Position numbers and translations under genes: made by a program. Below, piece after piece: positions 1 to 18,250 of a stretch of DNA of 18,250 bases. The notes under the pieces are model-generated. The model made no database searches. It was not told the origin of the DNA and was given only the letters and a program-made list of their open reading frames with translations. This DNA comes from a virus: positions 1-18,250 of IMG/VR virus record IMGVR_UViG_3300045988_105363. One strand, written 5' to 3'. The stretch's first letter is position 1. Each line of letters opens with the position of its first letter.

Positions 1-345
1 ACAGTGGCACACTGTGCCCTGTGTCTGTGTTTTCCCCATTGTTTTTTTTAACTTCTCGGCGCCGCGCTCTCTCTGTACTCGACTCGCCTATTTTTTTCTT
101 TCGGTGTCGGGCCTTGTGGTGTTGAGCTTGCTCGCGCCCTTTGCTTGTTTACTGTCTTGTGTCTGTTTTGTTTGCCCGTGATTGGGACTTTGTTTCTTGC
201 CTCTGATTGAGGACTTTTCTTTTTCTTTGTATCTTCATTCTATCGCCTCTTGCTGTGTCTGTCAATTTTTCCGCGTTTGGGCGTGTCGTTTGTTGTCTTG
301 TTTGGTTGCGGTTTGCGACACGCCGGTGGTTGTGGTGTGGTGTGG
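1..345. repeat. Left inverted terminal repeat (ITR-L), perfect 345-bp copy; imperfect similarity continues to about 394
   Basis: The reverse complement of 17906..18250 equals 1..345 (checked block by block). The first mismatch is at 346. Positions 363..386 and ATGGCA at 389..394 match the right end again. Confidence 0.97.
237..265 (-). promoter_or_regulatory. Outward-facing sigma70-type promoter inside ITR-L (TTGACA-17 nt-TAGAAT)
   Basis: On the - strand, TTGACA lies at 265..260, followed by a 17-nt spacer and TAGAAT at 242..237. It points toward position 1 with no gene downstream. Confidence 0.55.
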
Positions 346-358
346 GGTGTGGTATAGT
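330..358 (+). promoter_or_regulatory. Inward early promoter at the inner edge of ITR-L (TTGTGG-17-TGgTATAGT, extended -10)
   Basis: The -10 TATAGT at 353..358 is preceded by TGg. A weak -35 TTGTGG lies at 330..335. The promoter is about 30 nt upstream of the first gene's RBS. Confidence 0.4.
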
Positions 359-388
359 GGGGGTGTCTGGAAAGGACAGGTGATTATG

Positions 389-751
389 ATGGCAATTTCG
401 GAAATGAAGAATACTGGCAAGCATCATTATTATGTGGCGTGCTGGAGCCATGGAATCGGTGTGACTGACAGTGCCGGCAATCCGTATGTCGGTATTCTTG
501 TTTTTGACACTGTTGTTGCGGCTGATGCTTATGCCAATGAACATGCGTATGAAGATGGTCATTCGTATGCTGAGCGCGTTGGCGCTCGTTGTGCAATGCG
601 TATTATGCGGCGCCAATTGTTCTCGGAAATGGTTGATGTTTTGGGCATTCCGCTTTCTTGGCGTGATGATGTTAGCGAGCTGCGTTCGCGCATTAATGGT
701 ATGGGGGTAGATGCTCTTATTGGAGAGTACCGTGTGTACTGTTTTCGCTAG
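389..751 (+). CDS. Hypothetical early protein, 120 aa (left-terminal gene)
   Basis: The RBS AAAGGACAGGTGA lies 5 nt before ATG 389. The ATGGCA aligns with the right-terminal gene's start. An alternative ATG lies at 386. No recognisable domain. Confidence 0.6.
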   Translation: MAISEMKNTGKHHYYVACWSHGIGVTDSAGNPYVGILVFDTVVAADAYANEHAYEDGHSYAERVGARCAMRIMRRQLFSEMVDVLGIPLSWRDDVSELRSRINGMGVDALIGEYRVYCFR

Positions 752-1326: not shown

Positions 1327-1343
1327 GTCTTGGCGTGTCGCCG

Positions 1344-2276: not shown

Positions 2277-2661
2277 TGTTTTCATCTTCCTTTCTGTCGT
2301 TGTTGTTGTTGTTTTTCTCAAAAATGCCCATGAACTTTGCTTCTTTCAATTTTGGGTTAATTTCACAAACATTTTCAATGATTGATGTGAGTTCAATGGC
2401 AATAATACCAATGGAAACAATTGGGAATAATTCAAACGGCAGATTAAGCGAAGAATTGAGTTGAATGGTGTCAATAATATATGCAACAAAAATAAGAACG
2501 CAATAAGCGAACTTATGGCCAAGTCCTTCGTGCATTGTACGTGAACTAATTTTAGACTTCATTGCTGCATTCACCACTCCAGTAATATAATCAGTAATAA
2601 TAAATGCAACTACTGCAATGGAATACCACATAATATCATTGGTAATGTATGTATGTGTCAT
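2269..2661 (-). CDS. Holin (phage_holin_4_1 / LL-H-type), 130 aa
   Basis: Three hydrophobic segments and the motif ITGVVNAAMKSKISSRTMHEGLGHKFAYCVLIFVAYIID. It has a charged C-terminus, lies directly upstream of the endolysin, and overlaps the ATPase stop by ATGA. Confidence 0.8.
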   Translation of the reverse strand: MTHTYITNDIMWYSIAVVAFIITDYITGVVNAAMKSKISSRTMHEGLGHKFAYCVLIFVAYIIDTIQLNSSLNLPFELFPIVSIGIIAIELTSIIENVCEINPKLKEAKFMGIFEKNNNNNDRKEDENNE

Positions 2662-3716: not shown

Positions 3717-3746
3717 AATAATGTCCTCCCGTATACCTCTATCATA

Positions 3747-5018: not shown

Positions 5019-5042
5019 GGTTGTATTGTACCGTAATATTGT

Positions 5043-5068
5043 GGGCGGCAATAACAGTATTGCCGCCC
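5043..5068. terminator. 11-bp stem hairpin GGGCGGCAATA-acag-TATTGCCGCCC with a T tract on the + strand only
   Basis: Perfect stem 5043..5053 pairing with 5058..5068. The + strand continues TTTATTGATTTATAT, while the - strand continues ACAATATTACGG. Confidence 0.5.
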
Positions 5069-5090
5069 TTTATTGATTTATATGATACTG

Positions 5091-6038
5091 TCAGTCGCCC
5101 AATCGAACGATATTGATTGCCGCATTGCGGATTAGGCCGCTCATGTTTTGCGTGGATTCATCCGGCACAAGTGAATCCATGCGCAGCATGTCGCCCGCCG
5201 TGAGGTGGTGCAGCTGCGCGGGGATTACCGATTTCTGCCCCGCTCCCGTCGCGGCGCCGTTGCCGCCCACCACGATTGAAGCGGCGGTGTCCGCCAGGAC
5301 ATTGTTGTATGATGACGGCGAGCCGCGCATGATGCGCGTGTGTATCGGCCTGTAATCCGAGGTGGAGCTAATCAGGCTGCCGTATACGACGTGGCCTGAA
5401 ATGAGGTACCAACCTGTTTTATTGATTTTTATTTCATTTTTGTTCTGAAGGACTATTGAGTTATCAGAACTGTTATGGAAGTCATTTGACAGTTCTGTGT
5501 TAAAATCAATTGGTACTACAGTACTGGAATTGGTCCAATGTACTGACTGTGTGCCAGCGTCCGTATGGTATTGTGCATGTACGATTTTTTCATTAAAATT
5601 AGAGTTTGATTCACTCTTTGAATAAGAATCTGTTTTAGTCCTATACTTGTTATCGCTTTCCGTCTTTGTGTATAGTTCTGCTTTTGTGTACACACTCGTT
5701 TTGTCCGCTTTATTGGCAATGGCGGTGTCGTATACTGTTTTTTCAACAAACTTGCCATCGGCGTTGTTTTCGATTGTGGTTTTGGTGTCGTCAAGCGCTG
5801 TTTTCGTGGCGTATGTGTTCTGCGCGTCCGTTTTTTTAAGATAGTCGCGCTTCACTTCATTGACAGAGCTTTCAGCGTTCTGCGCAGAGGTTTTTGCGTC
5901 AACGGCAGACGTTTTTGCGGCCTGGATGCCTGTGTCAATCTTGTCCATATCCGCGTTGTAGTCGCCGCGCCATGATGGTTTGTCGGCGTCCTGAAACTGC
6001 GACAGATTATAATATGAGGTCTTTTTTGAGCTTGACAT
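5091..6038 (-). CDS. Tail fibre / receptor-binding protein with a possible C1q/TNF-like C-terminal head, 315 aa
   Basis: N-terminus SYYNLSQFQDADKPSWRGDYNADMDKID. The middle has K/T/S/D-rich repeats (KADKTSVYTKAELYTKTESDNKY). The C-terminus has GWYLISGHVVY...LHHLTAGDMLRM. RBS AAAGGA lies 9 nt before ATG 6038. Confidence 0.6.
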   Translation of the reverse strand: MSSSKKTSYYNLSQFQDADKPSWRGDYNADMDKIDTGIQAAKTSAVDAKTSAQNAESSVNEVKRDYLKKTDAQNTYATKTALDDTKTTIENNADGKFVEKTVYDTAIANKADKTSVYTKAELYTKTESDNKYRTKTDSYSKSESNSNFNEKIVHAQYHTDAGTQSVHWTNSSTVVPIDFNTELSNDFHNSSDNSIVLQNKNEIKINKTGWYLISGHVVYGSLISSTSDYRPIHTRIMRGSPSSYNNVLADTAASIVVGGNGAATGAGQKSVIPAQLHHLTAGDMLRMDSLVPDESTQNMSGLIRNAAINIVRLGD

Positions 6039-6055
6039 GATTCGTTGTCCTTTCA

Positions 6056-6706
6056 TTATTGTTTTGGCTGAAAATTGTTTGCCTCCGGGTTGAGTGGCAT
6101 GTAGGTGTTTTTGGCCTCGTTTTCGCCCGGGAGGCATCCGTTTTCATCGTCGGTCGATGGCGGCCCGATTGGGCGTTCGCGCGGGAAGTGTCCGCGCGCG
6201 TCGGTGACGTCGCCAAGCTGGGCGTCAGGTACGCCAATGGGCCACAAATCATATGTGCGCGCGTCCATGCCCACGGCGTCCCATTCGTCCACGCTGAGCG
6301 CCATGTCGTCGTAGTCCCTCGCGAACAGCGCGTGTACGCGAACGTTGTCGTACATATCATCAAGTACGGTCTGCACGGACTGGATTACGCCGCGCACCGG
6401 AGAGCGCGCGACACCTGTTTCGTTCGATGTCTCCACGAGCGCGCGCAGCTCTTTTTCCAACTCCGCTAGCGCCTTGTTTGTTTGGTTGATTACCTCTACA
6501 ATTTTTTTGTCCACGTCGGGTTGAATGTTGTTCAATCCCTCGCCTATTTCGTTGGTTTTTTCGACCACAATATTCAGGTTGTCGCACAATGCCTGAATCC
6601 ACGTGAGCATATTCAGCGTGTCGCGGTATGCGAATGGCTGTGTGGTGGTGAAATACGGCCTGTAGCCATATAGTGTGTCGAATTGTGTGGTAATTGGTTG
6701 TACCAT
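6056..6706 (-). CDS. Hypothetical tail/appendage structural protein with a central coiled coil, 216 aa
   Basis: It lies between the lower collar and fibre genes. RBS GGGAGA lies 8 nt before ATG 6706; an alternative ATG at 6715 overlaps the upstream stop (ATGA). No recognisable domain. Confidence 0.5.
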   Translation of the reverse strand: MVQPITTQFDTLYGYRPYFTTTQPFAYRDTLNMLTWIQALCDNLNIVVEKTNEIGEGLNNIQPDVDKKIVEVINQTNKALAELEKELRALVETSNETGVARSPVRGVIQSVQTVLDDMYDNVRVHALFARDYDDMALSVDEWDAVGMDARTYDLWPIGVPDAQLGDVTDARGHFPRERPIGPPSTDDENGCLPGENEAKNTYMPLNPEANNFQPKQ

Positions 6707-6711
6707 TGTTG

Positions 6712-7536
6712 TCATCTCCCTAGGTAATATCCGAGTGCCGAAAACTGCGCGCCACACCACGGTGGAATTGGCCGGTTGGTCATGGAATCGCTTGACCCCC
6801 ATGTTTGCATGAACAATTGTTCAAGCGATTGCACTACCATCATATCAATATTAAGTAGCGTATTGCGGAACTCATTGAGCAACTGCGAGCGGCTCCCGGA
6901 GAATCCACTCGTATGGGCCTCGCTCGCGCCGTGCGCGGTGTCGGTCTGGTGGCCGGCGGAATCCGTGTACGTGTCGTTGGTGCTGTGCTGCCGCGTGGAG
7001 GTGTCGCTTGTCCCACGTGAATCGGTCTGCGAAGCGCTTGTGGCGTACCGCCGAAAATCGTCAATCCTGGTTTGCGGAAACTCGCTGTTGAACGTCATTG
7101 CCGTGTTGTCGGTTGTCGTATTGCTCGAACTGTCCCCGTCGCTGTTGGCCGTCTGTTTCGCGGTTGAATCGCTGTCGCTGTTGCTTGTGTTTGAAGTGTT
7201 TCCGGTCTGCCATATTTCCGTTGTTATGAATGGGTCGAACTTCATCAATTCTGTCTTATAGAGTTGGTTATAATATGGCATGTTTTCGTTCATGGTTCGA
7301 CCCAATAGGAACGCGAACGCCTGTGGAGTTTCCACGCTGATTTCCCGCATTAAATAATGCCTGATTATTTTTTCATTGAGTTCGGCCCTATGTTGCTCAT
7401 TGAAGATGGGATAGTAGTCGGGAGATAGATGCAATTTTTCGTCGGTGTCATACCCCATGGCAATCAGCGTGCCCAATTCAATGGTGTAATCCGCGCCCAT
7501 GTCCTGTAGTGCGTATTGGCTGAAATCCTGTACCAT
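6712..7536 (-). CDS. Lower collar protein (phi29 gp11-like), 274 aa
   Basis: Synteny directly after the connector. Motifs IIRHYLMREISVETP, MPYYNQLYK and C-terminal NIDMMVVQSLEQLFMQTW. A central S/T/D-rich low-complexity stretch. RBS AGAGG lies before ATG 7536. Confidence 0.6.
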   Translation of the reverse strand: MVQDFSQYALQDMGADYTIELGTLIAMGYDTDEKLHLSPDYYPIFNEQHRAELNEKIIRHYLMREISVETPQAFAFLLGRTMNENMPYYNQLYKTELMKFDPFITTEIWQTGNTSNTSNSDSDSTAKQTANSDGDSSSNTTTDNTAMTFNSEFPQTRIDDFRRYATSASQTDSRGTSDTSTRQHSTNDTYTDSAGHQTDTAHGASEAHTSGFSGSRSQLLNEFRNTLLNIDMMVVQSLEQLFMQTWGSSDSMTNRPIPPWCGAQFSALGYYLGR

Positions 7537-7544
7537 GTCCGCCT

Positions 7545-8483
7545 CTATTCCTCTGTGTCGCCGTCTGTGCTGAGAATGCCGCCTGACAGATAGTCGGACC
7601 AATCCACGCTGAGCTCCGGCATTCCCGCGCGCCGTAGCCACAAATCGTTGATGGTGTCGCACGCTTGTTGCCGGCACTGCAGAAAACTCGCGCGGAACAC
7701 GTTTGTTTTCTCGTTTCCGGCCGCAACCTCGTCGGTGATTAAGCGTTCTTTTTTTTCTGTGGTACTGTTTTGGATACCCAAAAAATTTACAAGCTCGTTC
7801 CATACCTGAGTTTTTACATTAAGCACTTTATCCGCAATAAACGGTGTGGCGTTCGGGAACGTCTGGAACATGCTGTTGATGTCCGCGCTATCATAGGTGT
7901 ACACATATGGCGCGCCATTTTCGCGCGCTTTCATAATGTTTTCCACCGTCAGTTTTTGCGTTTCATTGCACGCTATGATCAGCGGAATCGAAATGTTGTC
8001 CAGATTCACATCAAGCGCCCTGTCCGCTATGGCGAGGCGCATGGCGTAATCGCCCATGACGTCCAACAGTGTGCAGCGCAATGGGTTGTCCCATATGGGC
8101 ACGCACTCTTTGGAACCAAGCTGTTTGTAATGGTATCCGGTGGCGATTGGGTAGAATGTCGTGGGATTGTTGTAGTTGTTTGTGTTGCCGTAATTGCCTG
8201 ATGTCACGACAAACCTATGCCACTGTTTGTCCGGGAAGAACAAAGCCACGCCGTTCTCCAGCAGTGTCATTTCCAAGTACCGCATGTCAATGCCTTGCGG
8301 TAGGTTGCGCCACGTGAATCGTGAGATGCAGAGCATTTCAATCAATTTCATATATTTTTGCACGCGGATTTGTTGCGACATTTCCGCATAATTGAAGTTC
8401 GGCGCGCTCCATCGTGAGCCTAATACTCGGTCTTTTACCTTGAGTGATGCCTGTCGTGCACCATTTTTTTTACGTCGTCCCAT
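7545..8483 (-). CDS. Head-tail connector / upper collar (portal) protein, phi29 gp10-like, 312 aa
   Basis: FLGIQNSTTEKKERLITDEVAAGNE...CRQQACDTINDLW parallels phi29 gp10 [25 protein letters not shown]...SREEACEKINELY (from memory). The basic N-terminus MGRRKKNGAR resembles MARKRSNTYR. Confidence 0.88.
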   Translation of the reverse strand: MGRRKKNGARQASLKVKDRVLGSRWSAPNFNYAEMSQQIRVQKYMKLIEMLCISRFTWRNLPQGIDMRYLEMTLLENGVALFFPDKQWHRFVVTSGNYGNTNNYNNPTTFYPIATGYHYKQLGSKECVPIWDNPLRCTLLDVMGDYAMRLAIADRALDVNLDNISIPLIIACNETQKLTVENIMKARENGAPYVYTYDSADINSMFQTFPNATPFIADKVLNVKTQVWNELVNFLGIQNSTTEKKERLITDEVAAGNEKTNVFRASFLQCRQQACDTINDLWLRRAGMPELSVDWSDYLSGGILSTDGDTEE

Positions 8484-8497
8484 AAGGTCAATGATAG

Positions 8498-8532
8498 CAT
8501 AATGGCGACTGCAATGCAACCGCCATTATGCC
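8498..8532 (-). other. Intercistronic hairpin (11-bp stem) between the tail knob and connector genes
   Basis: GCATAATGGCG (8498..8508) pairs with CGCCATTATGC (8522..8532). The hairpin ends 14 nt before the connector ATG, which lacks an SD. Confidence 0.45.
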
Positions 8533-8548
8533 GCCCACCACAGTTCAT

Positions 8549-10756
8549 TCAGTATCTGATGCCCTTCAGTGGGGCGTTGTCCGCGTAGTCCGTCACCCCG
8601 ATTTTGGAGGGGTCGCGCCATACCGTCACGCCTTTTTCAAAAATACCCTTGATGGTCAGCCTGTATTCTTCGGGGCATGTGCTGGAACGCAGATGGAACT
8701 CATGCAATTTCCAGTACGTGAAATTGCTCATGCACATAAGACTGTCGGGCAGCTGGATGAACCGCTGCACGTAATATCCGAAACGCAGCCAAAACTCGCC
8801 TATATTGCGCATGGCCGCGTCCGGCAGCCTCTTGAAACGCGCCCACACCTCGGCATGGCCGTTGCCCAGGAGCACGGCGTCGCCACCGGACGCCGCGCCG
8901 ATTGTGGGCGATGATAGCCGGCTGTCCTGTATCTTGGCGTTGATTCCGGCTATGGTGTTTGCATAATCGCCCTGTGCGACGGCGGTCGCGAGCGATTTGT
9001 TCATGTCCGCCAGTTTCATTGATTGCTCGTTGTTGAGGTTGGTGGACTGCATGTTATAGGCGTTTTGTTGGCTTGTGGACGCAAGCGCCGTGCTCTGTTG
9101 GTTGGCAAGCGTGGCATTCGCCTGCCGCACTGAGTTGTCGTACTCGGCGACGCCGAACGCCGCGTTGGAAGCGGTGCCGGCAAGCGCTGACACGGCGCCC
9201 CCGACATTGCCCGAAGCGAGCGAGCCCAAAAAACCGGCGCCCCCATTCACGAGGTTCTTACCTTGGCTGATGGCCTGCTGTTGCGCCATGTAGTCCATGT
9301 TTATATCATTGGCGCGGGCCGCGCCCTGATTTGAAATCGCTGTCATGGCGTTACGGTTTTGGTTTGCCAGATTGGCGCCGCTCGTGGCGTATTGCGTGCC
9401 TATTTGCGCTTGCGCGTACGCATTGTTGATGCCCATTTGTGTTTTGTTTTGCGCCCAATCGGCCGAGTTTTGCGAATATTGAATGGAATGCGCATTGCTC
9501 GCCATATACATCGTGCTATTGTTATTGACCACAGAGATTTTAGGCAGGTCCACAAGCCCGATTGTGTTGTTTAAATCCTCGCCGCCATTGTAGTTTCGTG
9601 GGTAGAAAAACAGGCGCGGTTGAGGGGGCGCCAATCGCCCGAACTCCCATATATCCAGCGCGGCGTCATCGACATATTGCGGTTTGATGATGGCGCTGTT
9701 CCCGTTCTGCATGGTCAGCTCGACATACGAATAGGGGAACATGCGGAACTTTTTCAGATGCTTGTACCTGTCATCTATATGGAATCTGTCGCGGAAGTTC
9801 TCAATCCGCAAAAACGATGCATCAAACGTGGAACGGGCGACATTGGCGATATGTTTGTTGCTGTTGTTTCCCAGCACGCCTATATAGAAATCGGCCATGT
9901 AATTGTTGATGTCCACGCCGGCCTGTCCCAATTGCCTGAACCTGGGCACGGCCCATACGCCTATGATGCCCTGTGACACCCATGGGTAGTTTGATATGTA
10001 CCCCATCACCGCCGTTAGTTTTTCGGTGTAATATACGCTCGCGCCGTCGTGCAATGAATCCACGATGCTGCCTACCGCCGTGTGCAATTGTGGATTGGTC
10101 ACAGTGCCCGCGGGAAGCACGAGCGACGTGGTGGACACAATGATGTAGCCGATGTCAGGCTCACGTACCACTTCGACGTCTTCGGGCCTGTCGCCGTGGA
10201 TCACCGTTTTGCCCAGGTCCATGTAGCGTTTCGATTTCTGCTCTACAATCCTGCCGTCCGCGCCGGTGTCGAGGCCCTCTGCTATGTCGAGGTAGTCGCG
10301 TCCATAGTCGTCCCATTGGCGTTCGTTGGCGACGCCGATATGGCCGCGTTCGACGTAACAGCGTCCGAAACCAATGTCGAATTGGAATGATTGCCACACG
10401 TCCAATTGTATGTTCATTTGCGTTGTATATGCGTTGATATATGTACATTCTTGTACGAAATAATACCAATATTTGGGGGTGTCGAAATCGTAGTCGTTAT
10501 AGGCTATCAAATAGTTGTATTTGCACGCTTCAGAAAAAGGCAGTTTCAATCGCACCGGCAAACCGAACTTCGACATGCTGCATTCATTGAACTCAACGCC
10601 TTGCAATGAGTTAAAATATTCCTCTTGCTGTTGCCTGTCATTGAATCGTACAATGTCCCTGTATCCCATGTCCCAATTCACGTTGCAGAGTTTGAACCTC
10701 GTGTTCGGTGTCCAGCTCGCATAGGAGAAATTGATGGGTAAATCGTTCGCGCTCAT
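8549..10756 (-). CDS. Tail knob protein, phi29 gp9-like, 735 aa
   Basis: The N-terminal YNYLIAYNDYDFDTPKYWYYFVQECTYINAYTTQMNIQLDVWQSF parallels phi29 gp9 [43 protein letters not shown] (from memory). It has an internal Q/N/A-rich region and a Gly/Ala hydrophobic stretch. Synteny supports the call. Confidence 0.8.
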   Translation of the reverse strand: MSANDLPINFSYASWTPNTRFKLCNVNWDMGYRDIVRFNDRQQQEEYFNSLQGVEFNECSMSKFGLPVRLKLPFSEACKYNYLIAYNDYDFDTPKYWYYFVQECTYINAYTTQMNIQLDVWQSFQFDIGFGRCYVERGHIGVANERQWDDYGRDYLDIAEGLDTGADGRIVEQKSKRYMDLGKTVIHGDRPEDVEVVREPDIGYIIVSTTSLVLPAGTVTNPQLHTAVGSIVDSLHDGASVYYTEKLTAVMGYISNYPWVSQGIIGVWAVPRFRQLGQAGVDINNYMADFYIGVLGNNSNKHIANVARSTFDASFLRIENFRDRFHIDDRYKHLKKFRMFPYSYVELTMQNGNSAIIKPQYVDDAALDIWEFGRLAPPQPRLFFYPRNYNGGEDLNNTIGLVDLPKISVVNNNSTMYMASNAHSIQYSQNSADWAQNKTQMGINNAYAQAQIGTQYATSGANLANQNRNAMTAISNQGAARANDINMDYMAQQQAISQGKNLVNGGAGFLGSLASGNVGGAVSALAGTASNAAFGVAEYDNSVRQANATLANQQSTALASTSQQNAYNMQSTNLNNEQSMKLADMNKSLATAVAQGDYANTIAGINAKIQDSRLSSPTIGAASGGDAVLLGNGHAEVWARFKRLPDAAMRNIGEFWLRFGYYVQRFIQLPDSLMCMSNFTYWKLHEFHLRSSTCPEEYRLTIKGIFEKGVTVWRDPSKIGVTDYADNAPLKGIRY

Positions 10757-10784
10757 AATGTCCTATCCTTGTTGTGGTATGGAA

Positions 10785-10819
10785 ATGCGGGGCATAATGG
10801 CGTATGTCATGCCCCGCAT
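10785..10819 (-). terminator. 11-bp stem hairpin just after the capsid gene (possible partial terminator or attenuator)
   Basis: ATGCGGGGCAT (10785..10795) pairs with ATGCCCCGCAT (10809..10819). On the - strand it is followed only by UUCCAU. Confidence 0.4.
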
Positions 10820-10836
10820 ATCGGCGTATGGTGCCG

Positions 10837-12624
10837 TTACTTCGACTTCTTCACCAGTGTGGCGTACGAATCGCCGTCGGGCGCGTCGGTGGAATCAAGG
10901 CCGAGGCCCTTGACCCTGACGTGGGTGGCGCCGCCGTCCCACGCGGCCGTGGTGTCGATGTTCACCGTCATGCCGTCGGTGCTGATGCCGTCCATGGCGC
11001 CGCTCACATCGACGTGTGCGAGATGGCTCACATCGACCTTTTCGCCGCTCATGGTGGTGCCGATTGCGCGGAACGTCACCTCGCCATGGTACGGGCCGCC
11101 GTCGCCCTGTTCCATATCGACCTCGACATTGCCGGACGGGCTGATTTCGATGCCCTTGAAGATGCTGGGGCTCCAGCCTCCGAGATAGTCCCCCGCCACG
11201 GGCACGTCAAGCGCGGCGCCCGTCTCCTGGGTGACTTCGGGGTGTGCGGGGTCGATGTATGTGGCGCGCGCCTTGACGCGCAGCTTGGTCGCGTTTTCGT
11301 CGAGGCCGCACACGAGGATTCCCTCGTTGTCCAGTCGGGTGTACTGCGATGTGGCGCCCTCCAACATGTATTCGATGCCGAGCGGGGTGAAATCGGGGTC
11401 GCCCTCCACGGTGATGTTCGACCACACCTGTACGATGCCGCCACGGCGCACGTTCTCTGGAATGATGTTTTCCTCCCCGTACTTGCGCAATTCCACGGTG
11501 AACTCCGGCGTATCGGCCTTGACATTGGACGGCAGGTTGATGTTTTCCGGCGTGCCCTCGCCAGTCCAGAACAGCAGGGCATTGGCGAGAGGATTGGGCG
11601 TGATGGAACCACTATGCTTGTAGAAAATATTATAGCTATTATCAATCGGATTGACTGGGCTATTGGTTGTTTCAAGAATCTGGTCCCAACGGAACCAAAA
11701 ATCAGTGGTTGTAAGAATTGCCTGAGCGCCGCGAATACCAAACTGCTCAGGATTGATGGGAATAATCCTGTAATTGATATCCGCTTTGTCAATGTTGAAC
11801 GTCTGCGCGAGCGCGTTCACGTCAAGCGCGGAAATGACCTGTGGGGTGGCGAACAGCACGGCGTTCTCACGATTCCACGGAATGACCCAATGTGCGGCGT
11901 TGTAGCGGCCCATGCCACTCAGGGGGGTGGCGCGGAGCGTGTCGCTCATGGCGCGAATCTGTCGCAGCATGTTCTTCGCCTGGGCTTCGGTGGAATCCCA
12001 CGCGCCGACGTCATCTGTGTGAATCCTGAAATATCCGCCCTGTTTCGCATACTCCGCGAAGCACTGCGTCATCATCAAATACATGTCATTGCGGTCGGAT
12101 TTAATCGGCGCGTCCATGAGCTCCGCAATGAAATCGCCCATATTGCCGTCGCTCGTAAAGGCCGTGAGAATGGCGTCCTGGGGAACGGTCACAGGGTAAT
12201 AATGGTTAAAGTTGAGCGGGTGGAAATAGTTTTTCACCGGCACCTGATAACGCCCGAAGACATCGTCGCCAAGGTACTCTTTGTTATAGTCGCGTGTGCG
12301 GGCCTCAATCAATCCGACAGCGGCCTGTTCGTATGTGCCGCCGTACCGCTTGAGTTCGTTCGGTGTGCCCATGTCGCGTAGCGGGTTGTCATAGTCGGCG
12401 TGCTGAATATACATGCCAATGATACGCTGAATAAACGTGTTATAGAACTCGTCGCGCAGCACAGGGTACTGTGAAATCTGCTCAATGGATTGGCGAATAT
12501 TGCCCTGTGTTGCAGCTGGAATGCGCACCTGAAATTGCGGGCTCATTGCGCCGCGCACGGCGTTGAATATTTTTTCCGCAGACTGCGTAGCGAGCGGCCT
12601 ATGGTTAGTGGGGTGGACTGCCAT
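10837..12624 (-). CDS. Major capsid protein (phi29 gp8-like HK97 fold) with C-terminal Ig-like (Big_2-type) domains, 595 aa
   Basis: It lies after the scaffold gene and is the largest head gene. The N-terminal two thirds resemble gp8-family capsids. The C-terminal ~200 aa look like two beta-rich Ig-like modules. RBS AAAGGAAC. Confidence 0.8.
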   Translation of the reverse strand: MAVHPTNHRPLATQSAEKIFNAVRGAMSPQFQVRIPAATQGNIRQSIEQISQYPVLRDEFYNTFIQRIIGMYIQHADYDNPLRDMGTPNELKRYGGTYEQAAVGLIEARTRDYNKEYLGDDVFGRYQVPVKNYFHPLNFNHYYPVTVPQDAILTAFTSDGNMGDFIAELMDAPIKSDRNDMYLMMTQCFAEYAKQGGYFRIHTDDVGAWDSTEAQAKNMLRQIRAMSDTLRATPLSGMGRYNAAHWVIPWNRENAVLFATPQVISALDVNALAQTFNIDKADINYRIIPINPEQFGIRGAQAILTTTDFWFRWDQILETTNSPVNPIDNSYNIFYKHSGSITPNPLANALLFWTGEGTPENINLPSNVKADTPEFTVELRKYGEENIIPENVRRGGIVQVWSNITVEGDPDFTPLGIEYMLEGATSQYTRLDNEGILVCGLDENATKLRVKARATYIDPAHPEVTQETGAALDVPVAGDYLGGWSPSIFKGIEISPSGNVEVDMEQGDGGPYHGEVTFRAIGTTMSGEKVDVSHLAHVDVSGAMDGISTDGMTVNIDTTAAWDGGATHVRVKGLGLDSTDAPDGDSYATLVKKSK

Positions 12625-12657
12625 AATATGTTCCTTTGATTGTTATTGTTTATTGTA

Positions 12658-12948
12658 TTAATCTTCGTTGAACAAATCTTCAATGGACGGCGTTTCGTCG
12701 TTGTCGCCGTCATTGTTTTCCGTATTTTCCGCCGGAGAGAAGCCCAATGTCTCAAACATGAACTTGAGTTCTGCGAACGATTTTTCCAGAGCGTCGAGAC
12801 GCGGTTCAATGTTCGCCGTGTCTACCGTGCCATGTTCGGATTCAGGCTGTTCAACAGTCTCGCCGCCGTCAACCTGTGGGGGCGTGGGGTCATTCACTGT
12901 TTCCGTGGTCTGCTCTTCCATGTTTTCCGTGTTGTTCTCGTCAGCCAT
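12658..12948 (-). CDS. Scaffolding protein (phi29 gp7-like), 96 aa, very acidic
   Basis: The size matches phi29 gp7 (98 aa). The composition is acidic and looks helical. The C-terminal PSIEDLFNED resembles gp7 ITIEDLEAK (from memory). RBS AAAGGAAAACA lies before ATG 12948. Confidence 0.65.
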   Translation of the reverse strand: MADENNTENMEEQTTETVNDPTPPQVDGGETVEQPESEHGTVDTANIEPRLDALEKSFAELKFMFETLGFSPAENTENNDGDNDETPSIEDLFNED

Positions 12949-12968
12949 TGTTTTCCTTTCGCGCGCGT

Positions 12969-12974
12969 ATTGTA
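12969..12974 (-). promoter_or_regulatory. Candidate -10-only late promoter element (TACAAT) upstream of the scaffold gene
   Basis: TACAAT lies on the - strand 20 nt before ATG 12948, with no acceptable -35. A 12-bp perfect palindrome, GCGGCGCGCCGC (12979..12990), lies just upstream. Confidence 0.2.
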
Positions 12975-13149
12975 TGTAGCGGCGCGCCGCAATCACGCGA
13001 CGCGCCATATTGGTTATGCAAGCACATTATTGAATCGTGTAGAGTGTCGTTGGCTGGACGAATCACAGTCCCATAACGGTGGCGATTTTCTCACGCCGGG
13101 CCTTTCCGATATGGCAATCTCAGTCACAATTCCATGCTTAAAACCACTT

Positions 13150-14592
13150 CTATAATACCACGGTATCGCCGTCCGCGTCAACCACGGACATGCCGGAACG
13201 GTAGCGTTCCCACGGTATCGGGCCGGTGATGCTGGAACCTGAATGCACCAATCGTACGCCGCCGTTTTCGTCTTGCGCTTGGAATCTATTGATTCCCAAT
13301 ATGACTACTTTTACGAACCGCCCCGACACTTTCCACGCGCCCAGCTCGCTGTCATCTATCGTGATGCCGTTCGGCGCGTCATGTCCGGTCAGCATCAATC
13401 CGTCTGTGTTTGCGTATATCAATCGGTGACTATTCAGACGTGCGGCGCGCAATAATTCTTTGCGCGCATAGGCGTTCACCCACATGGGGACAGGTAAATA
13501 ATCGGTGGAAAAATTGGACTGTTTTCTATGGTATGGTTGCCACGTCAAAGCGCCATCAGCGTCTATTTCCGGCAGTAGTCCGTATCCACGATTAAGCGCG
13601 GCCATTTTCCCCACAAGGGAGTTCAGCATTATTTTAGCCAATTCCCTACGCGCGCCGTGCGCGTTTTTTTTCATGTCATACCATTCGTTTACATACGAAT
13701 AAAACATGCCCTTAGAGCGCCTGAACTTATATCCTTTGACATGCTCAAACAATGTCACATTATAGTTTTCATATAATAGTTGTTGGTCTATGTCTGTCAG
13801 GCATTGCGTGATGAATCCGCGCGTTGATTCCATTCTTTTTTCAGCATCGAACTGCATCATGCCGTCGGTTAAAAACGGAAAGCCATTGGGCTTTAAATCC
13901 GCTCTGAACGTCATTATATCGCAGTGCAACGGCATGTCGTTATCTTCGACATATTCTCCGAAATATTCTTCAGGCTCGCCATAGGGCAACCATTGGTCAT
14001 GCAATATCCATGGATACATGCTGTTGATATCCAAGTCCAACACGTCCCCATATTCCCCGGATTCGGCTTTCATATATCCGCCTATATATCCGCTACGCAT
14101 GTCTGTTTTTTGCTCGTCGGATAAACGGGGGAACTTGTCGGCATACCATGGGCCGCGTCCGTCCCTGAAATCGTGCATTGCGGCGCTGCCCGCCGTGACA
14201 CGCTGCAATCCAAGGCGCTCCAACTCCAATAGTGCGCTATTGAATGTTCCATATGACTTGAGTATGTCCTCATATGTGGAGTGCAATATGTTGCGTATAT
14301 CATAAAACAGGAACCTTTTTTTCTTGGATAAAGTCAACTCGAAACTATAATATTTCCCGTTGGTTGTTACGATGGAATCCCATGACAAACCGCTATGGTT
14401 GGGGTCATGCGGGAACGCCGATACAACGTGCCGTATGAACGGCAATAGCGGGTCTATGCCGCATGAGTATATAACATGCTTTTCGTCGCCTGAATGCATG
14501 ATATTGTTCAATGCTATTTGTGGCGTATCGAACGGCATTGTTGCGCCGTTTGTCCATCGTATTACGCCGTGTTCCAACATTCCCGTTTTCAT
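13150..14592 (-). CDS. Protein-primed family-B DNA polymerase (phi29 p2-like), 480 aa, with a shortened N-terminal domain lacking Exo motifs
   Basis: Motif A DLDINSMYP, LPYGEP, motif B KIMLNSLVGK, motif C LIYANTDG, LGAWKVSG in the KxY region, and RVTAGS matching phi29 RMTAGS. RBS AAGGA lies 9 nt before the ATG. Confidence 0.9.
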   Translation of the reverse strand: MKTGMLEHGVIRWTNGATMPFDTPQIALNNIMHSGDEKHVIYSCGIDPLLPFIRHVVSAFPHDPNHSGLSWDSIVTTNGKYYSFELTLSKKKRFLFYDIRNILHSTYEDILKSYGTFNSALLELERLGLQRVTAGSAAMHDFRDGRGPWYADKFPRLSDEQKTDMRSGYIGGYMKAESGEYGDVLDLDINSMYPWILHDQWLPYGEPEEYFGEYVEDNDMPLHCDIMTFRADLKPNGFPFLTDGMMQFDAEKRMESTRGFITQCLTDIDQQLLYENYNVTLFEHVKGYKFRRSKGMFYSYVNEWYDMKKNAHGARRELAKIMLNSLVGKMAALNRGYGLLPEIDADGALTWQPYHRKQSNFSTDYLPVPMWVNAYARKELLRAARLNSHRLIYANTDGLMLTGHDAPNGITIDDSELGAWKVSGRFVKVVILGINRFQAQDENGGVRLVHSGSSITGPIPWERYRSGMSVVDADGDTVVL

Positions 14593-14629
14593 ATTATGCA
14601 GTCCTTGTATTGCGGGAGTATTATATTGT

Positions 14630-15691
14630 TTAATAATCCTTTACGGCCATGGTCATATAATCATTGAATGTCTGCCTTGCCAGCCGCCTTTGGCGCGGTG
14701 AATCGAACGCGGTTGATATACCGTTTTTAGGGTCGGAATCAATCCACGAAAACACTGTTTTCACTATGGCGCCCTCGTCCCATAAACGTTGACGTTGTTT
14801 CTTGCTTAACGCCCTCCATCTTCTTAAGCCTTTTTTGCCCATTGATTTTTTGATAGCTTCTTCAAAACTATCATATTGATGCGCTTGGCCTTCCTTGTAT
14901 ATTTCAACCTTTTTCTTATTATACTTTTTGGCTGTTTTACCGCTATTGCGCTGAGGTTTGCGCGTGCGTTTGCCAAGCATATTCGCGGCGTCCAATATCT
15001 CATTTTCCAGCACATTGCGATTGTGTTCAAGCAACGAATTAACAAACGCACTATCAGCCAATACGTTCTTTTTACGGAGGAAATTGGATAGTCGCGTAGG
15101 CACGATTTGCTCCACACCGAACTCACCTGTTGCCGACCTATTGAGTTCGGCAATACGCGCGTCGTACACGCTCATTGCTGGCTGTTGGCGTGCAATATTA
15201 TATTGCTCTATCCTCTTTTTTGCATAATTGTACTTGCGCTGCCTACGCCTTAAAAATCGTTTTTGCTTCGACGGCGCTGCCGCTATATCCGCGTCCGTTG
15301 GCGGCTGGGTTTTCACTCGCTCATAATCCTGTTTAGACGGCCTTATTACTGGCATGGTATGATATGGCGTGCGCTTTGCCGCTTCGATTGCCGCACCGGC
15401 GTCGCGCGCCCATGTCCGCGCCATGTCCGAAGCCAATGTTTGCAATTGTTTGTCGGTCATCAACGAGAGTTTGCGCGGCGTTAAAACGTTGATATTCTCA
15501 GGATTTGCGCGCTTTATTCCCATTGCCGCTTGCCGTGCTTTATAATCCTTATATGGAGTTGTATTTTTACGTTTTGTTTTCTTTGTTTTCTTGCGCGCTG
15601 TTTTACGGATTGAATCCGTTTTTCCTTGCTGTTGCACGCTTTTAATATACGCGAGCCTGTTGCCTGAATAGTCGAAGATTTTTTTATCCAT
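14630..15691 (-). CDS. Putative terminal protein (phi29 p3 analogue), 353 aa, highly basic
   Basis: It lies immediately upstream of the polymerase, as in phi29. It has Lys/Arg runs (KKTKKTKRK). The C-terminal WIDSDP places a Ser 34 residues from the end, as in phi29 FDSEGN (Ser232 of 266; from memory). Confidence 0.6.
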   Translation of the reverse strand: MDKKIFDYSGNRLAYIKSVQQQGKTDSIRKTARKKTKKTKRKNTTPYKDYKARQAAMGIKRANPENINVLTPRKLSLMTDKQLQTLASDMARTWARDAGAAIEAAKRTPYHTMPVIRPSKQDYERVKTQPPTDADIAAAPSKQKRFLRRRQRKYNYAKKRIEQYNIARQQPAMSVYDARIAELNRSATGEFGVEQIVPTRLSNFLRKKNVLADSAFVNSLLEHNRNVLENEILDAANMLGKRTRKPQRNSGKTAKKYNKKKVEIYKEGQAHQYDSFEEAIKKSMGKKGLRRWRALSKKQRQRLWDEGAIVKTVFSWIDSDPKNGISTAFDSPRQRRLARQTFNDYMTMAVKDY

Positions 15692-15723
15692 TGTGCGCGC
15701 CTTTATTTTCCCGTGATATGAAG

Positions 15724-15757
15724 CACCCCCACAACCTCGTATAAGGGTGTGGGGGTG
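15724..15757 (-). other. GC-rich hairpin in the leader of the terminal protein/polymerase genes
   Basis: CACCCCCACA (15724..15733) pairs with TGTGGGGGTG (15748..15757). There is no U tract. It lies downstream of the promoter at 15833..15805. Confidence 0.45.
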
Positions 15758-15804
15758 TGTCTGTCAGGTGACTATGCGAGAGGACTGCAACCCGCACAAT
15801 CACT

Positions 15805-15833
15805 AGTATACCATTACTTCTTCTTCATGTCAA
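15805..15833 (-). promoter_or_regulatory. Near-consensus promoter TTGACA-17-TATACT
   Basis: On the - strand, TTGACA lies at 15833..15828 (overlapping the last codons of the SSB-like gene) and TATACT at 15810..15805. Confidence 0.55.
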
Positions 15834-16248
15834 CTTCAGCCGGCACGAGGTTGAAGAACCGGCGCCCCGCCCGCGACCTGCCTTCGACCACCTTGAGGCG
15901 CATTGGCTCGTTCCACGTGTTCGGCGTGCCGAAGATGCCAAACAGCGTGTTGAACGCGCTCGCCAGAGTGGGAGAGGTGGCCGCGTAGGCGTGACCATCT
16001 TCGGTGAGGATAACGACACGCACAGATTCATTCATTTCGTGGGTGGTGTCGTTTTCCACGCTCACGCGCTGCGCGACAACGTTCACGACGTCCAGCGGCT
16101 CATTGAGATGTTCATCGAGCTTGCCCGCGTCTTGCAATGCCGCGTAGAGCGTCATTTTGCCCTCGTTGGTGCTCGTGTCGATGAAATGCTGGATTGTTCC
16201 GTTCGCCGCGTTCTCCATGTCAATGGAGGTCAGTTCTGTGGTTGCCAT
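15814..16248 (-). CDS. Single-stranded DNA-binding protein, phi29 p5-like, 144 aa
   Basis: VVILTEDGHAYAATSPTLASAF...RLKVVEGRSRAGRRFFNLVP parallels phi29 p5 TTIFAADGSLYSAISKTVAEAA...KVKVVQGTSSKGNVFFSLQL (from memory). RBS AAAGGTGA lies 5 nt before ATG 16248. Confidence 0.55.
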   Translation of the reverse strand: MATTELTSIDMENAANGTIQHFIDTSTNEGKMTLYAALQDAGKLDEHLNEPLDVVNVVAQRVSVENDTTHEMNESVRVVILTEDGHAYAATSPTLASAFNTLFGIFGTPNTWNEPMRLKVVEGRSRAGRRFFNLVPAEVDMKKK

Positions 16249-16289
16249 AATAGTCACCTTTCACTAGTTGTTTGTTGGCAAAACTTATA

Positions 16290-16613
16290 TTACTCGTTGT
16301 CTCCGTCGTAGTCAAGTTCGACATCTTCCGGCGTGTCGTCGTTGTCGGCGCCCAGCGTGTCCGTGATGTCCACAGGGTCACCCACCGGCTGCGCGTGCGC
16401 CATGAAATCCACGATGCCCATGGCGAACGTGGCGCGGTACACGCGCACTTCGCGGGCCAGAAAATCAGGATACAGTTTCTTTGCGCGCGCCACGTACTTC
16501 GCGACATCGCCGTGGCGTCCGACCACAGTATGGGTCATGTCCACGAACTCGCCGTTCACGACTTCCACGCCGTGGAGTTCGGCGTAAATCTCACTGCGCT
16601 TTACGTTGCTCAT
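16290..16613 (-). CDS. Putative p6-like dsDNA-binding / origin-organising protein with an acidic C-terminal tail, 107 aa
   Basis: Its size, its position upstream of the SSB gene (phi29 order 6-5-3-2) and its acidic tail DNDDTPEDVELDYDGDNE support the call. There is loose similarity to p6 (VNGEFV / VDGEVQ; AKKLY / KRKY). RBS AAAGGTGA. Confidence 0.3.
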   Translation of the reverse strand: MSNVKRSEIYAELHGVEVVNGEFVDMTHTVVGRHGDVAKYVARAKKLYPDFLAREVRVYRATFAMGIVDFMAHAQPVGDPVDITDTLGADNDDTPEDVELDYDGDNE

Positions 16614-17155
16614 TGTTTGTCACCTTTCATATGTGTGTTTGCTTTCAGGTCATCAAGATATAACTTCACAACCTGCATACTATCATACCGTGTCGCGTCC
16701 AGTTTGTCAAAACTGTTGAATGCACGCGTCAATGCCTGTTGCACTGTCAGCCTATCAAAAAACACGAGTTTCGCGTCATAGGCGCTGCCGCCGACTGTCT
16801 TAAGCACGGCAGACCACCCATAGAGCACAGGCACGTCAATGCTCCAATCGAGACGTTCGATGCCTCCGGTCAGGGGTAGCATGTCCTCAACCCGCGCGCG
16901 GTTGGCGGTGGCGCACATATCAGCGGCCTTGATGCAGCCGCGCATGAGCGCATCGTCACCGCGTGCATCTCCAACATACAGGCGGGCGAGCAGAGCGGCC
17001 GCGCGACATAGTGTCTCCCAGTCGCCGCCATGGTCGAACCTCTTAAGTTTGAGAATCCTGGCGCGGTTGGTCAGCGCCCGCTTGAATCGTGGAGTCTCGA
17101 AGATGCAATCATCGAAGCTGTTGCCGGACAGCGGGCGGTTTGTCTGTTGTCTCAT
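16610..17155 (-). CDS. Hypothetical early protein, 181 aa
   Basis: It has ATGA start/stop overlaps at both ends (17155/17152 and 16613/16610). No recognisable domain. Confidence 0.6.
   Translation of the reverse strand: MRQQTNRPLSGNSFDDCIFETPRFKRALTNRARILKLKRFDHGGDWETLCRAAALLARLYVGDARGDDALMRGCIKAADMCATANRARVEDMLPLTGGIERLDWSIDVPVLYGWSAVLKTVGGSAYDAKLVFFDRLTVQQALTRAFNSFDKLDATRYDSMQVVKLYLDDLKANTHMKGDKQ
16682..16710 (-). promoter_or_regulatory. Near-consensus promoter TTGACA-17-TATGAT inside the 3' end of the 181-aa gene
   Basis: On the - strand, TTGACA lies at 16710..16705 and TATGAT at 16687..16682, about 60 nt upstream of the p6-like gene's ATG. Confidence 0.55.
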
Positions 17156-17493
17156 TGCGCGCCCCACACTGTTTCGGTGAGTGTGATGGGGTCAAGTCCC
17201 CACGACTGAATGAATGCCTCGTACATGGCTTCAATGTCGAGCATGTCGAAGCTGAGTATGACCACCGGATTGCATGGGTTCGTAATGTTCAGGCCGTCGC
17301 ACCAATTGCGGAATCCATCATCTTGGAAGTCTACCATGTGATGTACCATTTTTATGCACGCCTCGAACTCCGATATTTCACGAGGCGCCAGCATTTGTTT
17401 GCTCATTTCGCTATACTCTTCTTTATCGTTTACCGTGATGATAAATGAGCCATACATGGGGTCGAAATACTTTGGGTATTCTTGCTTTTCCAT
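17152..17493 (-). CDS. Hypothetical early protein, 113 aa, strongly acidic
   Basis: RBS AAAGGA lies 8 nt before ATG 17493. Roughly 20 Asp/Glu against 7 Lys/Arg by hand count. No recognisable domain. Confidence 0.6.
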   Translation of the reverse strand: MEKQEYPKYFDPMYGSFIITVNDKEEYSEMSKQMLAPREISEFEACIKMVHHMVDFQDDGFRNWCDGLNITNPCNPVVILSFDMLDIEAMYEAFIQSWGLDPITLTETVWGAQ

Positions 17494-17546
17494 TATAACA
17501 GTCCTTTCATGTTTGCTAAAAGGTTTTACTAAAATACCTATTTTAT

Positions 17547-17575
17547 TTATAAAACAGGTTGCCGAAATCAGTCAA
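17547..17575 (-). promoter_or_regulatory. Promoter TTGACT-17-TTATAA
   Basis: On the - strand, TTGACT lies at 17575..17570 (overlapping the stop of the terminal gene) and TTATAA at 17552..17547, in the AT-rich 78-nt gap before the 113-aa gene. Confidence 0.5.
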
Positions 17576-17862
17576 TTAACCATAAGATACGCTTGGTACA
17601 AATCTTCAAGCGTATCAACGCGAGCGATAGCGCTCAGCGCCTCTTCATTGGCCTTGGAAAGCTCATTGAGGGACAGCAGAGTTTGCTCTGCCGTTTCGCA
17701 ACCATCAAGCATGATACGAATTGCCGCAACCTCGCTGATAGCGTGGAACGTCTCACAGCCACTACGCACAATATACATATTGGCCGCCTCTTCGGAATCA
17801 AACGCCTTTACTATATCCATGGCCTTGGAATAAATGAAGAACTTGCCGGTTGTCAGTGCCAT
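17572..17862 (-). CDS. Hypothetical early protein, 96 aa (right-terminal gene)
   Basis: ATG 17862 lies 5 nt after the ITR-borne RBS AAAGGACAGGTGA. The longer track ORF starts upstream of that RBS. No recognisable domain. Confidence 0.6.
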   Translation of the reverse strand: MALTTGKFFIYSKAMDIVKAFDSEEAANMYIVRSGCETFHAISEVAAIRIMLDGCETAEQTLLSLNELSKANEEALSAIARVDTLEDLYQAYLMVN

Positions 17863-17892
17863 ATTAATCACCTGTCCTTTCCAGACACTCAT

Positions 17893-17921
17893 ATACTATC
17901 ACACACCACACCACACCACAA
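17893..17921 (-). promoter_or_regulatory. Inward early promoter at the inner edge of ITR-R (TTGTGG-17-TGaTAGTAT)
   Basis: Mirror position of the left promoter. The -10 hexamer differs (TAGTAT) but keeps the TGn extension. Confidence 0.4.
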
Positions 17922-18250
17922 CCACCGGCGTGTCGCAAACCGCAACCAAACAAGACAACAAACGACACGCCCAAACGCGGAAAAATTGACAGACACAGCA
18001 AGAGGCGATAGAATGAAGATACAAAGAAAAAGAAAAGTCCTCAATCAGAGGCAAGAAACAAAGTCCCAATCACGGGCAAACAAAACAGACACAAGACAGT
18101 AAACAAGCAAAGGGCGCGAGCAAGCTCAACACCACAAGGCCCGACACCGAAAGAAAAAAATAGGCGAGTCGAGTACAGAGAGAGCGCGGCGCCGAGAAGT
18201 TAAAAAAAACAATGGGGAAAACACAGACACAGGGCACAGTGTGCCACTGT
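17906..18250. repeat. Right inverted terminal repeat (ITR-R)
   Basis: Exact reverse complement of 1..345. The window ends on the last ITR base, as expected for a complete linear protein-primed genome. Confidence 0.97.
17986..18014 (+). promoter_or_regulatory. Outward-facing sigma70-type promoter inside ITR-R (identical copy)
   Basis: TTGACA lies at 17986..17991, followed by a 17-nt spacer and TAGAAT at 18009..18014. It points toward the right terminus. Confidence 0.55.

Follow-up and report, generated by a model that had tools for sequence, protein, structure and literature searches.

The stretch of DNA analyzed here in full (the window; positions 1 to 18,250 of IMG/VR record IMGVR_UViG_3300045988_105363) is the complete, or essentially complete, 18,250-bp genome of a small phi29-like podophage with nearly all of its coding sequence on the minus strand. 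Its family B DNA polymerase (PolB; Table 1), and in particular the N-terminal domain of this enzyme, is the subject of this report. The polymerase matches PF03175 with 102.3 bits (cut-off 25.8) over residues 129-332 only and phrog_1907 (E 2e-46) over residues 102-433 only; a phmmer search of the PDB aligns residues 118-429 with residues 174-492 of phi29 polymerase 1xhx (E 9e-44). Alignment to PF03175 had been proposed in an earlier note made from the sequence of the window, and both this profile and the PHROG profile leave the N-terminal 100-128 residues unaligned. Since the N-terminal part falls outside the Pfam, PHROG, and phmmer alignments, it is invisible to single-sequence and family-profile searches. 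A profile of 52 family sequences matches the phi29 PDB sequence with an E-value of 4.6e-107. The phi29 numbering was verified on the GenBank phi29 polymerase record, where the only differences were engineered positions, including D12A.

Relatives were collected with an exhaustive HMMER search of 1.84 billion cluster representatives, which returned 1,940 of them; the site table and the tree were made from the best 150. These fall into two length groups, namely 18 representatives of 454-496 residues that lie nearest to the query and the rest, mostly of 540-630 residues. On a neighbor-joining tree of the polymerase-domain columns, the midpoint root splits the 18 short representatives from all others as one clade, here called the short clade.

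Judged from its sequence, the polymerization machinery is intact. The catalytic carboxylates of phi29 polymerase are D249 and D458 (PMC4974454), and the equivalent Asp pair is retained. So are the steric-gate Tyr, Lys and Asn of motif B, and both TPR insertions. The motifs quoted in the earlier note (DLDINSMYP, KIMLNSLVGK, YANTDG, and LGAWKVSG) are all present in the open reading frame (ORF), and the inserts that it described as TPR1- and TPR2-length measure 96 and 23 residues versus 98 and 23 in phi29. D188, N190, and Y193 show no variation among the 18 short-clade representatives, K320 and D397 are likewise invariant across the clade, and N324 is kept in 16 of the 18. In the AlphaFold model TPR1 is predicted with high confidence except for the loop at residues 245-249, and TPR2 forms a beta-hairpin with strands at residues 337-343 and 349-355. 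The thumb is shortened and the palm segment preceding it lacks another 19 residues, leaving thumb and palm segment about 34 residues shorter than in phi29. Its profile match, its catalytic residues, its TPR insertions, and probably its genomic context place the enzyme in the protein-primed PolB family of phi29 type; the one feature of this family that it lacks is the exonuclease site.

Table 1. Coordinates of the polymerase, its parts, and other features of the window.
Feature	Position	Strand	Remarks
Protein-primed PolB, 480 aa	13150..14592	(-)	PF03175, phi29 polymerase match, AlphaFold
N-terminal domain, residues 1-117	14242..14592	(-)	predicted shrunken relic of 3'-5' exonuclease domain; ~117 residues versus 189 in phi29
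32-33-residue deletion, around S114-Y115-G116 / T-F-N118	14239..14250	(-)	MAFFT, hhalign, and HMMER agree
Motif A DLDINSMYP, residues 186-194	14011..14037	(-)	D188 = phi29 D249; Y193 = steric-gate Y254
TPR1 insertion, residues 200-295	13708..13995	(-)	phi29 261-358
Motif B KIMLNSLVGK, residues 320-329	13606..13635	(-)	K320 = phi29 K383; N324 = N387; V327 at Y390, a Tyr near-invariant elsewhere
TPR2 insertion, residues 335-357	13522..13590	(-)	phi29 398-420
Motif C YANTDG, residues 393-398	13399..13416	(-)	D397 = catalytic D458; N395 at D456
Shortened thumb, residues 450-480	13153..13245	(-)	31 aa versus 46 in phi29
AAGGA ribosome-binding site	14602..14606	(-)	9 nt upstream of polymerase ATG
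Candidate terminal protein, 353 aa, basic	14630..15691	(-)	directly upstream of polymerase gene; assigned from position only
phi29-type single-stranded DNA-binding protein	15814..16257	(-)	PF17427, E 5.7e-17; phrog_6243
phi29-type major capsid protein			PF25622, E 5.6e-64
Left inverted terminal repeat	1..394		presumed replication origin; arms 97% complementary
Right inverted terminal repeat	17857..18250		394 nt; exactly at genome end

What has become of the exonuclease site? The two-metal DEDD site requires four invariant carboxylates (PMC4974454). The region ahead of motif A comprises 187 residues versus 248 in phi29, as the earlier note had counted, and a regular-expression scan of residues 1-187 bears out its reading by eye, finding no D.E, N.{2,3}[FYW]D, or Y...D. 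Three alignments were compared: a MAFFT alignment of seven phage polymerases, an hhalign alignment of an 18-sequence profile of the short-clade N-domain with a 105-sequence profile of the standard exonuclease domain, and a HMMER alignment of the 52-sequence family profile with the phi29 PDB sequence. All three recover the anchors that had been proposed, FYDIRNIL on phi29 IYDSLKKL and LQRVTAGS on LDRMTAGS, and the gap between them, put at about 30 residues, measures 32-33. In phi29 the deleted segment carries the Kx2h motif (K143) and the ExoIII motif (Y165 and D169). At ExoII, the places of phi29 N62 and D66 are taken by G45 and L49 in the hhalign and profile-to-PDB alignments. The strand bearing the ExoI residues D12-x-E14 is without counterpart in the same two profile alignments. 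Thus the DEDD residues D12, E14, D66, and D169 have no equivalents, the segment holding the catalytic Tyr and the auxiliary Lys is deleted, and no alignment places a conserved Asp or Glu at the ExoI-III positions.

The register of the extreme N-terminus is the one point on which the earlier note has to be corrected. It had set the initiator Met on phi29 D12, pairing VIRW with CRVW; the profile alignments choose another register, in which residue 1 stands opposite phi29 residue ~20-21. Unlike this profile-preferred start, the AlphaFold model has three short strands preceding the first helix. Neither register puts a conserved carboxylate at ExoI. Across the 18 short-clade representatives, each less than 50% identical to the others, conservation within residues 1-117 is limited to M1, G16, N101, and position 104, which is mostly Arg; no Asp/Glu column reaches 60%, and none of the acidic or His residues of this segment is conserved. 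Because the absence of a conserved acidic column does not depend on the phi29 alignment, the choice of register is irrelevant to the conclusion: the N-domain offers no conserved carboxylates, and so nothing from which a DEDD site could be built.

A trivial explanation would be that the short N-terminus is an artefact and that a full exonuclease domain is hidden by a frameshift, an assembly error, or an incorrect start codon. All that speaks for this is the prior that odd gene lengths are often sequencing errors. The gene is closed off upstream by an in-frame TAA at 14641-14643 (-), 17 codons before the polymerase ATG, and the preceding gene, at the terminal-protein position, ends 37 nt before that ATG with the ribosome-binding site between; moreover, the 32-33-residue deletion is internal and sits inside one continuous reading frame. 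The same length recurs in more than 120 independent homologue clusters of 464-487 residues from many metagenomes, some of which comprise hundreds of sequences or even more than a thousand, as well as in eight cultured Bifidobacterium phage isolates. A six-frame hidden Markov model (HMM) scan shows no coding potential for ExoI-III anywhere in the genome. A frameshift restoring a longer N-terminus, which the earlier note had named as the finding that would overturn its reading, is rejected in view of the stop and the ribosome-binding site ahead of the gene and of the uniform length that the homologues share, and we regard an artefact of any of these kinds as next to inconceivable.

The residues that remain still have the ancestral fold in outline. 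The hhalign comparison with the standard exonuclease domain gives a probability of 97.6% and an E-value of 1.3e-11, placing query residues 1-133 on phi29 residues 20-189. The AlphaFold2 model, built with 52 homologues, has a mean predicted local distance difference test score (pLDDT) of 91.3, with values of 90-96 across the N-domain. Superposition on phi29 polymerase structures, also proposed in the earlier note, gives Foldseek template modeling scores (TMq) of 0.81-0.86 for the full model, the best being 2pyj with 0.84-0.86. As the polymerase domain makes up 76% of the chain and could by itself give 0.76, the N-domain must contribute to the superposition. When residues 1-132 are modeled alone (pLDDT 89.3), the only matches in the PDB are nine phi29 polymerase chains (E 1e-3 to 1.5e-2, TMq 0.57-0.66, root-mean-square deviation 2.7-6.3 A); the next match has an E-value of 0.26. 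In BFVD the best matches, all of them weak, are mostly N-terminal parts of viral protein-primed polymerases, including that of BadAztec1. Matches to the stand-alone DEDD exonucleases WRN and EXD2 are not significant (E 0.36-1.5), which indicates that the exonuclease fold is reduced. By profile and by model, then, the N-domain is a descendant of a DEDD 3'-5' exonuclease domain whose active site has been lost.

This domain is not decaying. In three pairwise comparisons among the window polymerase and its two nearest metagenome relatives (94% and 80% identical), the ratio of nonsynonymous to synonymous substitution (dN/dS) for residues 1-117 is 0.023, 0.102, and 0.041, values equal to or lower than the 0.04-0.12 found for residues 118-480. 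Synonymous divergence between relatives amounts to dS 0.7-1.3, a figure that depends on elapsed time and not on mutation rate alone. Taken with the homologous fold, the low dN/dS means that the domain is maintained: it is a functional relic under strong purifying selection. Likewise, two phi29 residues that line the downstream-template tunnel, Y101 and T189 (PMC6351526), correspond to Y82, where members of the clade have Tyr, Phe, or Ile, and to T133, present in 18 of 18 representatives. We also note that the polymerase gene of the 94%-identical relative (contig L008, 3488-4930) differs from that of the window at nearly half of the synonymous sites (dS 0.72, dN/dS 0.04), the protein being very strongly conserved despite deep divergence of the nucleotide sequence.

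How widely is the loss shared? A survey of relatives, which the earlier note had recommended, finds the same losses throughout the short clade, which is monophyletic. In the joint alignment the residues D12, E14, N62, D66, K143, Y165, and D169 are carried by 105 of the longer representatives and by none of the 18 short ones; with 105 intact sequences set against 18 lacking every Exo residue, the contrast is categorical and chance is not at issue. Altogether the Exo motifs are not intact in 30 of the 150 best representatives, that is, in the short clade and in about ten other lineages. The latter comprise 12 representatives of 520-584 residues with degenerate motifs (P0158, P0165, P0167, P0189, P0207, P0223, P0233, P0235, P0244, P0273, P0279, and P0281), which scatter among exonuclease-intact sequences on the neighbor-joining tree. 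Some have the deletion of the ExoIII segment and others are full-length with substituted carboxylates; for example, P0158 reads ADFLTT and YELKDIG. This distribution suggests about ten further independent losses of the exonuclease, a count that is approximate and drawn from a crude tree.

All cultured members of the clade in the phage collection infect Bifidobacterium: BD811P1-3, BP1, BadAztec1/2/4, and BadAargau2 (eight isolates, 11 records). As these cultured phages encode the same short enzyme, it supports viable phages. By tblastn against the collection, the polymerases of BD811P1-3 and BP1 are nearest to the query (46-47.5% identity over 97-98% of its length), followed by those of the honeybee-gut phages BadAztec and BadAargau (34-35%); with polymerases of phages of Clostridium, Hungatella, Actinomyces, Eggerthella, and Bacillus, the alignment begins only at residue ~70-130. 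BadAztec-like polymerases start about 13 residues later than the query and lack the first two beta-strands, so that even these two strands are dispensable. In the honeybee-gut subclade (BadAargau2, L003 2495-3907; P0122-P0125) the protein starts at about query residue 14, likewise lacks the first two beta-strands of the relic, and has an N-domain of only about 105 residues.

Two substitutions in the polymerase domain, both pointed out in the earlier note, are confirmed by the alignments: the motif B Tyr of phi29 (Y390) is V327 (codon 13612-13614 (-)), and the first Asp of motif C (D456) is N395. At the motif B position all 18 short-clade representatives have Val, Ile, Thr, or Ala, whereas it is non-Tyr in only 12 of the 105 exonuclease-intact representatives (plain counts that ignore phylogeny). 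In phi29 polymerase, removal of the aromatic ring by the mutation Y390S brings discrimination at insertion down to about 3x10^2 and abolishes discrimination against dA opposite 8-oxoG (PMC1976434). Since Y390S lowers insertion fidelity in phi29, two determinants of fidelity appear to have been lost together in the short clade. The motif C substitution is less uniform. The residue is Asn in nine of the 18 representatives, including the query and BD811P3, and Asp in the other nine, including BadAargau2, which keeps YADTDS; the honeybee subclade as a whole keeps DTDS. No other full-length representative has Asn at this position, and the fragments P0143 and P0236 do. As a further observation, the Lys of the KxY motif (phi29 K498, a ligand of the primer terminus) is N435; the adjacent R436 (codons N435-R436 at 13285-13290 (-)) is nearly invariant and followed by an aromatic residue, so the basic residue has apparently moved by one position.

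Taken at face value, the replacements at D456, Y390, and K498 could mean that the protein is a pseudo-polymerase, disabled for polymerization, and that host enzymes replicate the phage. The phi29 mutant D456G is said to be inactive, which would favor this idea. The catalytic residues D188 and D397 are nevertheless invariant, K320, N324, and Y193 are kept too, and the polymerase part of the protein is under the purifying selection described above (dN/dS 0.04-0.12 for residues 118-480). Half of the clade has DTD in motif C, so Asn is tolerated within a functional family, and a natural group of family B polymerases, PolB_SITDG, has a hydrophobic residue at the D456 position (PMC7544198). Also, a phage whose linear genome ends in inverted repeats and encodes a candidate terminal protein and a single-stranded DNA-binding protein of phi29 type needs a protein-primed polymerase. 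We therefore hold a pseudo-polymerase to be very improbable. Given that the catalytic pair corresponds to D249 and D458 and that PolB_SITDG exists, we read N395 as a tolerated and possibly metal-tuning variant rather than as an inactivating one.

Both ends of the genome read alike over the first 60 nt, with the sequence ACAGTGGCACACTGTGCC..., and besides the proteins in Table 1 the phage encodes a tail knob protein, upper and lower collar proteins, a packaging ATPase, an endolysin, and a holin (Pfam and PHROGs). The 353-residue product encoded upstream of the polymerase is probably the terminal protein. It has a Lys/Arg-rich N-terminus and is 34% identical to the product of the equivalent BD811P3 gene (E 5e-49), and the position of its gene agrees with the gene order of phi29 and Av-1. 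It has no match in Pfam or PHROGs, and no similarity to the terminal protein of Av-1 was detected. The assignment by homology was accordingly dropped, and its position and its conservation in BD811P3 remain.

Two further observations concern other parts of the window. An Rfam scan did not find the phi29 pRNA and gave only a tRNA, a tRNA-Met with anticodon CAT at 1175-1249 (-) (58.8 bits), between the endolysin gene and the small ORFs of the left end; according to a 2024 review of phi29-like phages, many of these, including all classified ones, are without tRNA genes. The listed ORFs at 6056-6802, 6712-7803, and 7545-8519 (all (-)) overlap each other by 90-260 nt. The calls for this region in contig L008 are shorter (312, 274, and 217 residues), and each true start is therefore probably located farther downstream than the first possible start codon.

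Could proofreading be kept by other means? The relic might hold a non-canonical site, or an exonuclease might act in trans, either a host enzyme of the DnaQ or PolC type or a phage early protein. There is room for such a protein in six ORFs without a family (16220-16507, 16610-17167, 17152-17493, 17572-17892, 149-793, and 748-1008), and the strong conservation of the N-domain among close relatives, together with N101, which is invariant across the clade and has no assigned role, could be taken as signs of a site of another kind. Such a site would have to do without any conserved acidic or His residue in residues 1-117 and, in the BadAztec-like part of the clade, without the first two strands. 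Searches of PHROGs, Pfam, and the PDB find no nuclease among the other ORFs, and those without a family give no nuclease signal there. When the standard exonuclease-domain HMM was run with all filters off on every stop-to-stop segment of the six frames, it found only residues ~71-116 of the polymerase itself; an exonuclease elsewhere in the genome or a split gene is rejected on these searches. We know of no precedent for proofreading in trans of a protein-primed polymerase that is processive and encloses its DNA. Proofreading by any of these routes seems improbable to us.

We propose instead, and consider it quite likely, that the phage has a replicase without intrinsic proofreading and that the conserved, exonuclease-dead relic is kept as a scaffold. 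With the loss of the active site at ExoI, ExoII, Kx2h, and ExoIII, the enzyme most likely lacks intrinsic proofreading; a loss of exonuclease activity is what alignments and model predict, and the genome is most likely copied on base selection alone. The suggestion of the earlier note that the replicase may lack proofreading thus gains computational support, and it is from computation that we infer it. The polymerase would start at the terminal repeats, probably on the 353-residue terminal protein, and would copy the genome by strand displacement as in phi29. Nucleotides misincorporated on the way could not be excised by the polymerase. In phi29 the exonuclease domain closes the downstream-template tunnel together with TPR2, palm, and fingers, which brings about strand displacement, and it also contacts the terminal protein (PMC4974454, PMC6351526). 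By analogy, the relic N-domain would close the template tunnel with the same three elements and would probably also contact the terminal protein, and we propose that it has been kept for these reasons. Insertion discrimination by phi29 polymerase is reported to be 10^4-10^6-fold (PMC4974454). At such values an 18-kb genome should still often be copied without error in the absence of proofreading, which may be why the loss is tolerated.

Several points weigh against this proposal. Residues 1-117 of this particular protein do contain acidic residues (E7, D22, D36, E37, D47, D63, D72, E85, D98, E108, and D109), and an unconventional cluster of such non-conserved residues may exist. A novel nuclease may be present among the early ORFs of 95, 113, 106, 185, and 214 residues, which have no detectable homologues, and the terminal protein is assigned from position alone. 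Finally, phi29 mutants in the exonuclease metal ligands are impaired in strand displacement (PMC6351526). The clade must consequently unwind its DNA differently or with help, and the contact between TPR2 and the N-domain may have been re-optimized.

phi29 polymerase is the textbook replicase that unites protein priming, helicase-like strand displacement, highly processive synthesis, and proofreading in a single chain. A viable clade that has discarded the exonuclease site and kept the stump would be a natural experiment separating what the domain does structurally from what it does catalytically. With 30 of the 150 best representatives and about ten lineages besides the clade affected, loss of proofreading in phi29-like replicases would be recurrent rather than a curiosity. 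A bolder reading, which we put forward tentatively and think on balance unlikely, is that the clade replicates its double-stranded DNA with a naturally proofreading-free minimal replicase of ~480 residues at mutation rates well above those expected of DNA phages, to which the loss of the motif B Tyr and, in half of the clade, the replacement of the first motif C Asp would add. The roughly ten further losses would then mean that relaxed fidelity has been repeatedly selected or at least freely tolerated in the smallest tailed phages, and the enzyme would show that strand displacement and terminal-protein priming need no intact exonuclease active site. If fidelity is truly lower, this has a bearing on the extent to which small double-stranded DNA phages can do with less accurate replication and on the rapid diversification of the abundant Bifidobacterium phages of the gut. 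A compact, naturally exonuclease-free, and presumably strand-displacing polymerase is also of biotechnological interest; engineered exonuclease-minus variants of phi29 polymerase are already in practical use.

How does the enzyme compare with known systems? Like phi29 polymerase (gp2; 1XHX, 2PYJ, and 2EX3), it belongs to PF03175, shares the fold (TMq 0.84-0.86), the catalytic Asp pair, the steric-gate Tyr, and the lengths of TPR1 and TPR2, and is encoded just downstream of the gene at the terminal-protein position in a small linear genome with terminal repeats. It differs in size (480 versus 575 residues, with ~117 versus 189 in the N-domain), in the absence of D12, E14, N62, D66, K143, Y165, and D169, and in having Val, Asn, and Asn for Y390, D456, and K498. 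The terminal repeats measure 394 nt in the window phage versus 6 nt in phi29 (PMC4974454).

The cultured Bifidobacterium phages BD811P1-3 and BP1 (human gut or sewage) and BadAztec1/2/4 and BadAargau2 (honeybee gut) belong to the same clade (46-47.5% and 34-35% identity, respectively, over 95-98% of the length), and the window phage is a lineage distinct from them. Their polymerases of 470-483 residues also lack the Exo motifs and have a non-Tyr residue in motif B, the gene order is the same, and BD811P3 shares YANTDG in motif C. The records of these phages call the genes "DNA polymerase" or "hypothetical protein," and neither they nor the searchable literature mention an exonuclease defect. 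No report of Exo-site loss in phi29-like phage polymerases was found in the searchable, incomplete literature or in a targeted reading of the 2024 review of phi29-like phages, the paper on PolB diversity, and the paper on polymerase swapping. What the comparison predicts is a clade-wide, exonuclease-dead, miniaturized phi29-type replicase in a clade that has already been sequenced and is uncharacterized.

The closest precedent so far described is found in mavirus-like virophages and polinton-like viruses, whose PolB is likewise protein-primed and keeps the polymerization domain beside what is left of the exonuclease domain; the authors of that report likewise infer a lower fidelity (PMC11161782). 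According to the same report, these polymerases belong to eukaryotic viruses, are fused to terminal-protein and vOTU domains, and gained a helicase with the loss (PMC11161782). Unlike the mavirus-type case, the relic in the window enzyme is a folded domain under purifying selection, and no helicase was detected in Pfam, PHROG, and PDB searches of the ORFs of this genome. Within family B, eukaryotic Pol alpha has kept the exonuclease fold as a structural module after losing its carboxylates. The same holds for Pol zeta, whose exonuclease domain is described as inactivated and retained as a structural module (PMC7544198). Both are RNA- or DNA-primed cellular enzymes that work beside proofreading polymerases, whereas the window enzyme is the sole replicase of its genome.

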